Positions 17,591-38,186 of a stretch of 45,259 nucleotides of DNA are shown here, one piece after another; within the stretch, counting starts at the first letter, position 1, and each line of letters starts with the position of its first letter. The notes under the pieces were generated by a model, which was not told the DNA's origin, did not search any database, and saw nothing but the letters and a program-made list of their open reading frames with translations. The DNA lies in IMG/VR virus record IMGVR_UViG_2734482549_000013. One strand, written 5' to 3'. Position numbers and translations under genes: made by a program. Source of the DNA: a virus (Duplodnaviria; Heunggongvirae; Uroviricota; Caudoviricetes).

Positions 17591-18181
17591 GGGCTGGTTT
17601 ATTGTATGCCAAATGATTATTAAAAAGGTTGTGTTAATAACAAGATCCGAAATAATATGCCTGCATATTTTTATCTTGCTTATATTCTGCATATTGTGCA
17701 TAGCAGGCTCATCCCTGCAATCAAAACTGTATGATGAGTATTTTTTGTTTTCCTTTTTTCCAGTCATCTGATGATGACCTGCTTCTTTTTAATCCGGATC
17801 GACATCAGTTTTTTAAGATAATTCCTGCGAGTTATATGCATAAATGCCACAAACTCCGCATTTTATGTGGTTGGGAGTTGCCGGGCGCGCAGTGAGTTTG
17901 CTAAGAAAACTCCTGCATGGTGAATCCCCCTGTGCGGTGGGGTGATACCATTAACCTTTTCTGTCGCCGACAGGTATCACGAACATTTTGTTCACCGGGA
18001 GGCACCCGGCACCATGCACTTCAATAGATTCTCTCCACATTATGGATATTCTTTCAGAATATCCCACGCAGACTTTGTGTAAATGTTAACAAATGTGCGT
18101 TTTATTTGATCTGATTCGCTGTTTGAGCGTCCAAAACAACGGTATATATAATCCTTTACTATATGACATATGTGAGGAAAA

Positions 18182-33006: not shown

Positions 33007-33969
33007 GTGAGTTCAGGTGCAAAGGTTATCTCGGCATTTATCCGGGAGACGGTTGCAGGCACTACGCCAGCAAGTGGTGACTGGAGTTTATTAAAACGCA
33101 CAAGCTGGGGAGTAAAACCCACCCAGAATAAAGGCGAAAATAATGAGATTGGTGGCTCCCGGATGGCTCAGGGGGCGACGCCTGGCACTGTGGATGTCGG
33201 CGGTGATGTTGGTACCAAATTTCGCTGGGGTCAACATGATGATTTTCTTGCATCCTGTTTCGGCGCGGAATGGTCAGGCGATTCTCTGACAATGGGGAAT
33301 GAGCGAATAACATTTTCTCTGGCGACCTATGCGTCCGATGTCGGAATTGCCTCTGTCGTCAGAGGAGCGCAGGTTGGCTCATGGAAAATGCAGATCCCTA
33401 ACGACGGCGATATTACAGCGACCGTAACCTTTGCCGGACTGGACTGGGAATCAAAGGCCGATGATACGAATTTTATCAAAGGCGAACCTGTGGATAGTGC
33501 AGGAAAGCTACGTTATTCGTTTAAGGAGGTTTCAGCAGTAAGCCTGAATGGTGTTGCCGGAGGTAACGGTTTTTGTATCGACAGTTTTGATATTCAGTTC
33601 GATAACAAACTCCAGACACAGCGTTGTATCGGGACTGGCTCGCCTTATGCAGGAGCAAATATTCCGACTACTTTTACACCGTCCGGTACGGTGACGCTTT
33701 CATGGTCTAAAGCCGCGTGGGAAATCTGGAGTAAAACACTGACTGGAGAAACAGTTCCGTTCAGCTTCACGCTTTCGAATGGAGAGGGGGCATACACTTT
33801 CAGTTTCCCGAAGGTTCAGGTGTCAGGTGAATGGCCTGATGGGGGTAATAGCGACATTATCCAGGTTCAATTGAGCATTACCGCAGCAGATGAAGCACCT
33901 ACGATAACCAGAAAAAAAAATTCCCCGGCTGCCGTGATCGCAAAAGCCAGTGCTGAGGCGATTAGTTGA
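33007..33969 (+). CDS. Major tail tube protein, 320 aa, GTG start
   Basis: AGGAGG Shine-Dalgarno at 32994-32999; position upstream of the G/GT chaperone pair. Confidence 0.65.
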   Translation: MSSGAKVISAFIRETVAGTTPASGDWSLLKRTSWGVKPTQNKGENNEIGGSRMAQGATPGTVDVGGDVGTKFRWGQHDDFLASCFGAEWSGDSLTMGNERITFSLATYASDVGIASVVRGAQVGSWKMQIPNDGDITATVTFAGLDWESKADDTNFIKGEPVDSAGKLRYSFKEVSAVSLNGVAGGNGFCIDSFDIQFDNKLQTQRCIGTGSPYAGANIPTTFTPSGTVTLSWSKAAWEIWSKTLTGETVPFSFTLSNGEGAYTFSFPKVQVSGEWPDGGNSDIIQVQLSITAADEAPTITRKKNSPAAVIAKASAEAIS

Positions 33970-34017
33970 TTTTCCGTTATTCCTCCTGTGGTACTGCCCT
34001 ACAGGGGGACGCATTGA

Positions 34018-34479
34018 ATGAGGTTATGGATGTTTATTCTTAATCAGAAAATTATCATTGGTGGAGAACGCTGGTTTACGCCAATGAAGGACTTAAAACC
34101 TGTAGACGGGTTAAAACTGTTGGTGGCAAGCAGCGATAACGATCAGTATCGCTCCCGTAATGCATTAATCCGTCGCCACATTGAGAAAATGGATGCCAGT
34201 TTGCACGTCGGAACGAAGGAGTTTGATATTTCAAAGGTTTCCGAGGTGGATTCTGTTGATGATTTACTCATTGATAATGCCGCTCGTTATCTGCTGAAAG
34301 ACTGGAAAGGGGTTGGTGAACTGGTTAATGGTGTTGAGGTTGCACTGGAATATACGGCAGAACGAGGGATCGCGCTGCTTAAGCAGAATCCAGAGTTGTA
34401 CTGGCAGATCCTTGCAGAAGCAGCCAGCATCGCCCAGGGTAAAGAGCAGCAGAAGCAGGATACGATAAAAAAGCCATAG
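34018..34479 (+). CDS. Tail assembly chaperone G, 153 aa
   Basis: Position between major tail and tape measure genes; ends with slippery site A-AAA-AAG then CCA TAG. Confidence 0.7.
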   Translation: MRLWMFILNQKIIIGGERWFTPMKDLKPVDGLKLLVASSDNDQYRSRNALIRRHIEKMDASLHVGTKEFDISKVSEVDSVDDLLIDNAARYLLKDWKGVGELVNGVEVALEYTAERGIALLKQNPELYWQILAEAASIAQGKEQQKQDTIKKP

Positions 34480-34787
34480 CTGCCCAGCGGTGGTTATCGG
34501 AGTTCGGGGGAGAAAGGGGGGAAAAGGCAAGATGGAAGCGAGAAAAACTCAGGTTGCCACCGATACCGGAACCAGAAATAGACCCGGTGCTTAAGGAGTT
34601 GTTGTACGCCTATTCGGTAATATCCCGTGCCCGACGTTATGCTGGAATGGCTGGGGTGCCTTTGCCTTTATCTCTGACAGAGATAAATGAATATTTAGCC
34701 ACTCATCCGGTATTGATTGAGCGCGATGAATTTGAAGCAGTGATCTTTGCACTGGATGACCAGTATTTTCAGGAGCAGTGTGTGTAG
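34473..34787 (+). CDS. T-portion of the GT fusion made by programmed -1 ribosomal frameshift at A-AAA-AAG (34467-34473)
   Basis: The -1 frame is open from the slippery heptamer through 34787 with no stop; the downstream frame has no good independent ATG (track start at 34554 is TTG). Confidence 0.65.
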   Translation, partial: AIAAQRWLSEFGGERGEKARWKREKLRLPPIPEPEIDPVLKELLYAYSVISRARRYAGMAGVPLPLSLTEINEYLATHPVLIERDEFEAVIFALDDQYFQEQCV

Positions 34788-34952
34788 TTGTTAATTACGT
34801 ACACTCTGTTACAGAGATGTGATGGTGTCTTTAATTAAATCGATGATGCTCCTGGAGAAAAGCATTGCGTGGCCTCGTAATCGCTATATCTACTATTATG
34901 TCGCCTGAAACCCACTTCGCGGTGGGTTTTTTGTTGTCAGGAGTTTTAATAA

Positions 34953-37900
34953 ATGGCAGAGCAAACCTCGCGTCTCGCAATAATTATTGATAGCACTGGA
35001 GCGAAAAATAATGCTGACAATCTGACCTCCTCATTAGTCAAAATGACGCAGGCTGGGGAAACTGCTGCAAATAGCGCAGGGAAAGTGACTAAGGCAACAG
35101 AAGATGAGAAGAACGCGCTCGCAAAATTAAAAGCAGCTATTGATCCAGTTGGTGCCGCAATTGATACTGTCGGTCGACGCTATTCTGAATTAAAGAAATT
35201 TTTCGATAAAGGGCTTATTGATAAAGAAGAATATGAATTTCTTGTCCGTAAACTTAATGAAACCACAGAGGAATTGAGCGGGGTTGCGCAAGCGCAGAGA
35301 GAAGCCGAGAAGGCCGGAAAACTTGCTGCCGCCCAGCAGGAAGCGCAGGCTCAGGCCTTTCAAAGAATGCTGGACAAGATCGACCCTCTGGCTGCGGCGC
35401 TAAGAAATCTTGAACAACAGCATGATGAACTTAATGCTGCGTTTGCATCCGGGAAAATAAATGGTTCTCAGTTTGAGAATTATAGCCGAAAAATACAGGA
35501 AACACGGCGAGAGCTTACCGGAGAGGCTCAGGCAGAGCGAGAAGCAGCAAAAGCGCATGATGAACAGGTTGTTGCTTTGCAACGTCTGATTGCTCAACTT
35601 GATCCTGTCGGAACTGCTTTTAATCGTCTGGTAGAACAACAGAAACAGCTCAATGAAGCAAAAGCTAAGGGGATGCTTTCTCCTGAAATGTATGAGGAGC
35701 TTTCTGGAAAACTTCGTGCTATGCGGAGTGAGCTTGAGGTTACTCAATCACAATTAAGCAAAACCGGAATGTCGGCAAAACAAACGGCTTTTGCTATGCG
35801 CATGTTGCCTGTACAAATGACGGATATTGTTGTTGGGTTGTCCACTGGTCAGTCGCCATTTATGGTGTTAATGCAGCAGGGCGGCCAGCTAAAAGATATG
35901 TTCGGTGGGATTGGCCCGGCGATCAAAGGTGTAGGTTCTTATGTGCTGGGATTAATTAATCCTTTTACCCTGGCCGCAGCAGCCGTTGGGGTCTTAGGAC
36001 TGGCTTACTATAAAGGCTCTCAGGAGCAGGACGAATTTAATAAATCTCTTATTCTTACCGGAAATCAGTTGGGGACAACCAGCGGGCAATTGGGCGATAT
36101 AGCTCAACGTGCCGGGAATGCGGCTGATTCGACAACTGGTGCTGCGGCGGCAGTATTAAATCAGCTTGTGCGTTCGGGAAAGGTAGCGAGCAGTTCGCTG
36201 GAGCAAGTGACGACAGCGATAGTAAAAACGAGCGAAGTAACAGGAATATCAACCGAACAACTGGTTAATGACTTCAATGAAATTGCAAAGGATCCTGTCA
36301 GTGCCATATCAAAACTTAATGATCAGTACCATTTTCTGACACTTGCGACTTATAACCAGATTAAGGCGCTACAGGATGAAGGGAACCAGCAGGAGGCCGC
36401 CCGCATTGCGACAGAAGAATACTCATCCTCAATGATCCAGCGCACCAACCAGATTAAAGAAAATCTTGGTTATCTTGAGACTGCATGGAAAGCTGTCGCA
36501 GACTCCGCAAAATGGGCATGGGATTCCATGCTGGATATTGGCCGTGAGGCCTCCCTTGATCAAAAAATCTCAGATGTTCTCCGTCAAATTGATGAAATAG
36601 AAAAAAATACCCGACCCGGAGTTTTCGGGTTAGGTGGCATTGGAGATGGCGGAGCTCAAAATAAAAGGCTGGCACGATTAAAGCAGCAATTGGGCGTACT
36701 TCAAGCAGAAAAAATTGCTCAGGACGTACTAAATTCATCAATAAACGATTACAACAAGCGACAACAGGAAGGAATTGAACTCAGACAGAGAGCAGATGCC
36801 TTTTCAAAACAATATCAGACCCGGGAGCAGCAGAGAGCTAGTGAACTTGCAAAACTGGAAAAGCTAAAGAATCAGTATTCAAAGGAAGAATATAATAATC
36901 TTATCGCTCAAATAAATGAGCGTTATAAAGATCCAAAGCAACCAAAGGCGAAAGGTTATTCTGATGATGCAGCCCAACGAATGATTGATCATCTGAATCA
37001 ACAGAATGCGTTACTAAGTTCACAAGCTGAGTTGACCGTTAAATTAAGTTCCTCTGAACAGGAACTGGTTAAGTGGCGTCAGCGGATTGCCGACCTAGAG
37101 TCACGACCATCATCGAAATTAACCCAGGATCAGAAATCGCTTCTCTTACACCGGGAAGAAATAACCACGTTGATGGAGAAAAATGTTGCGATTGAAAAAA
37201 ATAACAGGCTAATCAAGGAATCCGCCGAAATAACAGCATGGCGTGATTCATTGCAGGCTTCGATTGATAATCGTCAGCAGGGGTATGATATTCAGATTGC
37301 TGGTTATGGGGTTGGCGATAAAAATCAGCAACGCCAGCAGGAATTACTGCGGATTGAACATGGATATAACAATCAGCGTCTGCAACTTGAACGTGACTAT
37401 GCAGATAAATCCCGTGGAATGTCAGATCATGTTTTTCAAGAGAAAATGCAGGCTCTGAATGATGCTCTGGAACGGGAAAAAGAAATTGTCAGACAGAAAA
37501 ACGAGCAGCTCGATATTCAGGCAGGAGACTGGGTTAGTGGTGCCTCCCAGGGATTCAATAACTGGCTGGATGACACTAAGGATATCAGTGAGCAGATAAA
37601 ATCAACCACGACTCAGATGTTTGATGGGATGACCGATGCGCTGGGTGATTTTGTCACGACAGGCAAGGCAAATTTTCGTTCTTTCGCTACTTCCGTGATT
37701 TCGGATCTTAGTCGAATAGCATTAAAGGCTTCAATTACTGGGATTTTCGACAGCATTAGTAACAGTTCTTCTGGGGGGATTTTAGGAACTATCGGGAGTG
37801 CTATTAGTAAATTTATTCCGAATGCAAAGGGCGGTGTTTATGAGTCTCCGTCATTGAGCACGTATTCGAACGGTATTTATGATTCCCCGCAATTTTTTGC

Positions 37901-38186
37901 TTTTGCAAAAGGGGCTGGTGTTTTTGGTGAGGCTGGACCGGAAGCCATTATGCCATTAACACGAACTTCCGATGGTTCTCTTGGTGTCAGAGCTATTAAT
38001 AGTAAAAGTGGTAATGGAGGCGGAGATATTACCTATGCCCCTGTATACCAAATCACTATTCAAAATGACGGCCAGAATGGAGAGATTGGCCCTCAGGCAA
38101 TAAAAGCACTTATGGGGATGGTTGATCAGCGGGTGCAGGGCAATCTGTTAAATATGCGACGTGATGGGGGAATGTTAAGTGGCTAA
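34953..38186 (+). CDS. Tail tape measure protein, 1077 aa
   Basis: Very long coiled-coil-rich ORF between the GT chaperone and gpM-like gene. Confidence 0.85.

Follow-up and report, generated by a model that had tools for sequence, protein, structure and literature searches.

A probable G/GT tail chaperone pair with a conserved -1 slippery site at the ydaY locus of a Rac-like Escherichia coli prophage

The G/GT genes of phage lambda are reportedly expressed through a programmed -1 frameshift, the work being attributed to Levin, Hendrix and Casjens in 1993 and to Xu, Hendrix and Duda in 2004, 2013 and 2014, and the G/GT frameshift class of phage tail assembly chaperones is likewise said to go back to the 2004 study of Xu, Hendrix and Duda. 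The tail assembly chaperone of HK97, whose structure is available (PDB 2OB9), is also among the closest known systems. The dnaX and IS3-family sites of E. coli use the heptamer A_AAA_AAG with lysyl-tRNA slippage and depend on a Shine-Dalgarno-like element upstream, a hairpin or pseudoknot downstream, or both, with frameshifting of tens of percent; frameshifting in dnaX shortens the product instead of extending it. G/GT frameshifting is widely conserved in long-tailed dsDNA phages, and the lambda system has been reviewed in the same context (PMC5009743). In addition, the frameshift in ECs1801 of prophage Sp9 in E. coli O157:H7 Sakai, which forms cluster A_AAA_AAG_25, was judged safely inferred by Sharma et al. 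2014 (PMC4066793). In this study, we analyzed a 45,259-nucleotide stretch of DNA (the window; IMG/VR record IMGVR_UViG_2734482549_000013), which is a Rac-like E. coli prophage, and compared the region between its tail tube and tape measure genes with these systems. Judged on its sequence, this region very likely encodes a G/GT tail chaperone pair with a -1 ribosomal frameshift at A_AAA_AAG that works like lambda G/GT.

First, we found that the gene order around the pair was that of lambda-like phages. All features discussed here lie on the plus strand. The tail tube (major tail) protein gene is located directly upstream of the pair (33007-33969; PF18906 Phage_tube_2, E 9.4e-32), and the tape measure protein gene is located downstream (34953-38186; PF06791 TMP_2, E 3.9e-81, and PF09718 Tape_meas_lam_C, E 3.9e-26), followed by lambda-type M and L genes. 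The position of the ORF pair between tube and tape measure genes was common to the relatives. As in lambda, the predicted -1 shift would take place on a lysine AAG codon close to the 3' end of G and would add an extension of approximately 100 aa; moreover, family members from Raoultella, Pantoea and Acinetobacter phages carry the exact lambda heptamer, G_GGA_AAG. On the other hand, the heptamer of the window is A_AAA_AAG, T and the tape measure gene are separated by 165 nt of non-coding sequence that contains a terminator-like hairpin, and neither G nor T showed detectable similarity to the lambda gpG/gpT families in the Pfam scan. Thus, the likeness to lambda is one of arrangement and working of the site, not of membership in the lambda G and T families. 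The sequence-only reading had claimed that this locus reproduces the G/GT arrangement of lambda-like phages, and the gene context, the second ORF in the -1 frame, the in-register heptamer, the phrog_313 match and the switch in coding phase described below all bear it out.

The first ORF of the pair, G, belongs to the ydaY (Pfam Phage_YdaY) family and extends from 34030 to 34479 in the 0 frame, encoding 149 aa. An alternative upstream start at ATG 34018 would give 153 aa; however, homologues of G in other genera all start at the equivalent of 34030, with M[FLI]I[LI], and a Shine-Dalgarno-like GAGG can be read at 34020-34023, 6 nt 5' of this conserved ATG. G is a protein of the tail assembly chaperone type, matching PHROG phrog_313 (tail assembly chaperone) with an E-value of 4e-46 over profile positions 13-149 of 258. 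Homologues of G carry PF27119 Phage_YdaY; a scan of the 256-aa fusion against a local copy of Pfam gave no match to the G part at E <= 0.01, and in NCBIfam none of G, T and GT was matched even at E <= 1. In the records of close relatives that we inspected, G is named 'protein YdaY' or 'hypothetical protein', T is named 'hypothetical protein', and slippage is recorded in none. The RefSeq version of G in the one full-length copy inspected with coordinates starts at TTG 34120 and has 119 aa, which appears to have been copied from the truncated K-12 gene.

The anatomy of the two frames leaves little room for a shift elsewhere. It had been claimed from the sequence that G ends in ATA AAA AAG CCA TAG, with A-AAA-AAG at 34467-34473 as a canonical -1 slippery site; we read GAT ACG ATA AAA AAG CCA TAG, with the TAG at 34477-34479, and both the position and the register of the heptamer (A_AAA_AAG; 0-frame codons ATA AAA AAG) checked out. 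The A run at the site comprises six bases (34467-34472). The -1 frame had also been described as open to 34787. Indeed, a TAA at 34440-34442 closes it on the 5' side, after which it is open from 34443 to the TAG at 34785-34787; a check for -1-frame stops between 34473 and 34554 found none, and the frame was also stop-free in 13 of 13 relatives. Because of this upstream TAA in the -1 frame and the TAG at 34477-34479 in the 0 frame, a shift into the -1 frame is confined to 34443-34479, the sole stretch in which both frames are open (12 codons), and no X_XXY_YYZ motif other than the heptamer occurs within it. The predicted G-T fusion has 252 aa from ATG 34030 (256 aa from ATG 34018), of which 148 residues (from ATG 34030) are from G and 104 from T. 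The chance that a -1 frame stays open over approximately 105 codons of random sequence is approximately 0.0065, calculated as (61/64)^105. AAAAAAG occurs 22 times in the window versus 13.3 +/- 3.8 times in shuffled sequences, and the heptamer alone is not beyond chance. For the predicted site the decisive evidence is comparative, namely the conserved motif, its register and the -1-frame peptide from the motif onward.

We then turned to GTDB genomes, IMG/VR and Logan/JGI contigs, which yielded 98 related loci with 52 distinct sequences, covering E. coli, Shigella, E. ruysiae, Citrobacter, Raoultella, Siccibacter, Pantoea and Scandinavium, with identities of G ranging from 100% down to 55%. A slip motif was present at the homologous codon in all 98 loci, and in nearly all of them it was AAAAAAG, so that an in-register slippery sequence within the overlap is conserved among relatives. 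A_AAA_AAG was found in E. coli, Shigella, E. ruysiae, Citrobacter, Siccibacter and Scandinavium; G_GGA_AAG, the heptamer of lambda, was found in Raoultella and Pantoea (loci L012 and L014); and one metagenomic contig (L096) had C_GCA_AAG followed directly by TAA. The 0-frame stop lay 7, 10, 28, 82 or 112 nt past the start of the motif, whereas the position of the motif itself was constant across the 98 loci. Among 13 diverged representatives, heptamer positions 4-7 (AAAG) were invariant.

The same 13 representatives were used for an analysis of coding phase; these are kin sequences, and binomial p-values are therefore approximate. Over the 150 nt that precede the heptamer, variability peaked at position 3 of the 0 frame in 39 of 47 codons, whereas over the 90 nt that follow it, before the annotated TTG, the peak was at position 3 of the -1 frame in 23 of 28 codons. 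In sliding windows of 30 nt, the phase switch was centred on the heptamer. The linker between the heptamer and the annotated TTG (34473-34553; AIAAQRWLSEFGGERGEKARWKREKLR), which is coding in the -1 frame and lacks its own start codon, showed a mean aa identity of 73% over its 28 codons and no stops in 13 of 13 relatives, whereas the other two frames showed 36-37% identity and one to three stops in nearly every sequence. Hence protein-coding constraint acts on the -1 frame from the slip site onward, and the alignment shows that, across the relatives, this frame has behaved as coding sequence in evolution from the heptamer on. A short ORF in the third frame from ATG 34532 (21 codons, preceded by AAGG) was considered and dropped, as this frame has stops in relatives.

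The core T domain occupies 34554-34787 in the -1 frame, ends at TAG 34785-34787 and matches phrog_1189 (E 1.4e-36), a family labelled 'unknown function'. It also weakly matches the C-terminal part of phrog_313 (E 0.0097, profile positions 173-246), and in the Pfam scan of the fusion the T part matched PF23812 Phage_TAC_18 with an E-value of 0.0032 and 18 bits, under the cut-off of 27. In RefSeq and GenBank, T is annotated on its own, as a 'hypothetical protein' of 77 aa with TTG 34554 as its start. This raises the alternative that T is an independent small gene and the heptamer incidental, for which speak the gene callers, which put a coding sequence there, and the presence of the TTG in the E. 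coli lineage. However, the TTG, which lies at +87, is restricted to that lineage; Citrobacter, Raoultella, Siccibacter, Scandinavium and others have no TTG at the homologous position. The -1 frame contains no ATG, GTG or TTG from the heptamer up to +87, and L015 and L083 offer no possible start before an ATG at +180, which is 60 codons into the conserved frame and well within the conserved T sequence. Furthermore, an abutting AGG and a GGAAG approximately 14 nt upstream are the only purine-rich stretches near the TTG, neither at the usual Shine-Dalgarno spacing. T is thus a second ORF in a -1 overlap without a conserved start codon. Given the lack of a start before +87, the lineage-limited TTG and the conservation of the 28 preceding codons as -1-frame protein, independent initiation cannot explain the conserved -1 coding sequence, and we consider an independent T gene very unlikely. 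The predicted entry from the G frame at the heptamer, by comparison, does account for it.

To extend the comparison, we searched deposited phage genomes with the fusion by tblastn and found relatives down to approximately 32% protein identity. Acinetobacter phages TRS1 and TCUAN1 had G_GGA_AAG; the isolated Erwinia phage Gungnir39 had C_GCA_AAG followed by TAA; and Pseudomonas phages phiPSA1 and Aurca01 had G_GAA_AAG in the context ACG CTG GAA AAG CCA, where their -1 peptide GKAIARFQWESEW aligns with KKAIAAQRWLSEF of the window. These substitutions indicate that the family-wide invariant is the A_AAG lysine slip, with a variable P-site codon. Among the motifs of the family, full re-pairing of two tRNAs is possible only with A_AAA_AAG and G_GGA_AAG; because the P-site codon of C_GCA_AAG and of G_GAA_AAG cannot re-pair, a two-tRNA slip is not universal in this chaperone family. 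In Acinetobacter phage vB_AbaS_TRS1 (NC_031098), TRS1_18 and TRS1_19 are recorded as a joined two-piece 'tail assembly chaperone' coding sequence, and therefore the frameshift is already annotated in a distant family member. The T part of TRS1 shares 38.8% identity over 80 aa with that of the window (tblastn E 4e-6), its relative TCUAN1 aligns over residues 56-249, and TRS1 has its slip motif in register and a -1 peptide starting with GKV..., which can be compared with KKA... in the window. TRS1 differs in its G_GGA_AAG, which lies 85 nt before the G stop versus 10 nt in the window, and in its host and the remainder of its genome. ECs1801 of Sakai resembles the window in having A_AAA_AAG directly before the 0-frame stop of a chaperone encoded between major tail and tape measure genes, but has 124 aa versus the 149 aa of G; membership of G in the ECs1801 cluster was rejected, as BLASTP between them gave no alignment at E <= 100.

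The variant motifs also bear on a second alternative, transcriptional slippage, by which RNA polymerase would add one A in the A6 run and thereby yield the identical protein. The site does contain a homopolymeric A6 run, and an extra A in the mRNA would be expected to give the same I-K-K-A junction. Nevertheless, efficient slippage by E. coli RNA polymerase needs A/T runs of approximately 8-9, which counts against this mechanism here, and the G_GGA_AAG, C_GCA_AAG and G_GAA_AAG motifs of relatives contain just three or four consecutive A while the architecture is kept. Since these variants lack a homopolymer run, transcriptional slippage is unlikely as a general mechanism, and we regard it as a highly improbable source of the product in the window. 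The weakest alternative is a decayed arrangement, in which the tail module is that of a cryptic prophage and the frame relationship a leftover without current expression: the Rac-like nature of the element (RalA sRNA at 1557-1735, Rfam), the truncated remnant that is all E. coli K-12 retains and the disrupted T ORF in some IMG/VR copies (L036, L038 and L053) would fit it, but it appears extremely unlikely given that the head-tail module is complete in the window, that 33900-35000 (G, T and the start of the tape measure gene) is 100% identical to Salmonella phage SPF_0923, a deposited phage genome, and that cross-genus changes fall mostly in third codon positions with the above aa identity in the -1 frame, the pattern expected of purifying selection on both frames.

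We therefore favor a G/GT pair expressed by ribosomal slippage, a mechanism that we infer together with the existence and abundance of the fusion protein and its binding partners. Most ribosomes translating G would stop at TAG 34477, giving the 149-aa G protein, whereas a minority would slip one base back on A_AAA_AAG. In such a slip, the lysyl-tRNA on AAG would re-pair with AAA, and the P-site tRNA on AAA would also re-pair with AAA. After the slip, G34473 would be read a second time, now opening the codon GCC, and translation would proceed in the -1 frame until TAG 34785-34787, which would yield the 252-aa G-T fusion. If the pair behaves as gpG/gpGT do in lambda, the tape measure protein would be coated by G and by the G portion of GT, the tail tube protein would be brought in by the T portion, and slippage would fix the low G:GT ratio needed for tail assembly.

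How often the ribosome may slip at this site can be gauged from reporter data. In E. coli, A_AAA_AAG gave 0.29% frameshifting with no stimulator, 4.3% with the IS911 stimulators and 39% with the IS3 pseudoknot, and the corresponding values for G_GGA_AAG were 0.28%, 3.8% and 43% (PMC4066793 Table S3); the two heptamers found in the family are thus functionally equivalent. The best tetramer by far in the same study (Sharma et al.; PMC4066793) was A_AA.G. In contrast with the dnaX and IS3-family sites, which share the A_AAA_AAG heptamer and the lysyl-tRNA slippage predicted here, a conserved hairpin or pseudoknot 5-9 nt past the heptamer was not found in the window and the 13 relatives. The single-sequence fold of 34440-34580 was no better than that of shuffled sequences (z = -0.7), and the RNAalifold consensus of the 13 relatives was a 5-pair hairpin of -1.5 kcal/mol with no covarying pair or compensatory change; on both grounds, a conserved downstream stimulatory RNA structure was rejected. 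Upstream, AGGA is present at 34457-34460, 6 nt before the heptamer, and AGGA or AGGAG occurs in several relatives (Citrobacter, L012 and L015). This element might act as a Shine-Dalgarno-like stimulator, but its conservation does not extend to all relatives: it is replaced by AAGA in L013, L096 and L097, and the same bases encode a conserved Q-[ED]-T. Based on the stimulator-free reporter value for A_AAA_AAG, the yield of slippage in the window could be very low, and we estimate that its efficiency probably lies between a few tenths of a percent and a few percent.

A literature search on ydaY and frameshifting found no paper describing the site in the window. The site is an ordinary, conserved and previously unannotated member of a textbook frameshift class, and it leaves the current understanding of frameshifting and tail assembly unchanged. 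Its main value is for annotation: ydaY and its neighbour can be annotated as G/GT, E. coli K-12 included, which gives the Pfam Phage_YdaY family and PHROG 1189 a function and corrects the start of T. It also provides a clean comparative case in which A_AAA_AAG, G_GGA_AAG and tetramer-type A_AAG sites interchange at one homologous codon. In the Rac remnant of K-12, window positions 34128-34800 are retained base for base, comprising an N-terminally truncated ydaY along with the heptamer and the entire T ORF. It is conceivable, but at present rather doubtful, that K-12 has here a previously unlisted programmed -1 frameshift gene beside dnaX and the IS elements, and that Gungnir39 (C_GCA_AAG TAA) and phiPSA1 (G_GAA_AAG) produce GT through slippage of a single tRNA instead of the canonical two-tRNA slip, perhaps with stimulation from the adjacent stop codon.

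Finally, the 33900-35000 region was matched in 1075 of 5426 complete E. coli genomes, in 693 of which at least 80% of it was spanned. The cassette was also found in deposited phage genomes.

At the codon homologous to the slip site proposed here (A_AAA_AAG, 34467-34473), several relatives carried motifs of a non-canonical type. C_GCA_AAG followed directly by TAA was found in Erwinia phage Gungnir39 (L101 1986-1995) and in a metagenomic contig (L096 2325-2334), and G_GAA_AAG was found in Pseudomonas phages phiPSA1 and Aurca01 (L104 434-440 and L100 1887-1893). In both motifs, re-pairing is possible for the A-site lysine codon only, which suggests that these relatives might use single-tRNA (tetramer-type) slippage, possibly with the help of the adjacent stop codon.

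A natural in-frame fusion of G and its -1-frame extension T was observed in an E. coli protein of 240 aa (NB16F79_39920, P0001), whose sequence switches from ...ILAEA to the -1 frame (GYDKKAIAAQ...) at a site corresponding to approximately 34414-34458 in the window. Two direct repeats, GCAGAAGCAG, are located at 34414-34423 and 34449-34458 (coordinates read by eye), and loss of the 35 nt from one repeat to the other could account for the fusion; such a copy would make only the GT product and no free G. Among otherwise near-identical prophages from IMG/VR, the T ORF was truncated or frame-disrupted in three copies (71, 60 and 49 codons in L036, L038 and L053, respectively), as might be expected if single copies had decayed or been misassembled. 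In several Logan-derived proteins (P0002, P0004 and P0010), the frame changed close to the A run and again at points beyond it; these changes resemble errors of sequencing or assembly.

In E. coli K-12 MG1655, the Rac remnant was identical to the window over 34128-34800 (L003 2501-3173), a segment that contained the heptamer together with the complete T ORF and was flanked by a truncated ydaY (the G gene) on one side and a truncated tape measure pseudogene, ynaA, on the other. The T ORF had no annotation in this record. K-12 ydaY was cut short where a deletion joined it to ynaK. Among full-length RefSeq prophages, coordinates were inspected for one, and its ydaY model (L002 1721-2080; 119 aa, TTG start at 34120, window 34120-34479) appears to be a copy of this truncated gene. 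This model lacked approximately 30 N-terminal residues that were conserved across genera, and homologues across genera indicated ATG 34030 as the conserved ydaY start.

The T stop and the tape measure start were separated by a non-coding gap of 165 nt (34788-34952); the corresponding gap in two relatives, L097 and L098, was only about a dozen bases. The 165-nt gap, inside a late tail operon, contained a hairpin at 34907-34930 that resembles a terminator, GAAACCCACTTCGCGGTGGGTTTT, with a T-rich tail after it. A short third-frame ORF of 21 codons (34532-34597; ATG at 34532, with AAGG upstream) was also considered. It lies in a G-rich stretch, GGGGGAGAAAGGGGGGAAAAGG, and probably occurs by chance, since relatives had stops in that frame. 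Finally, two sRNAs matched Rfam above the gathering score: STnc100 at 17885-18071 (86.6 bits) and RalA at 1557-1735 (225 bits), the latter marking the element as Rac-like.
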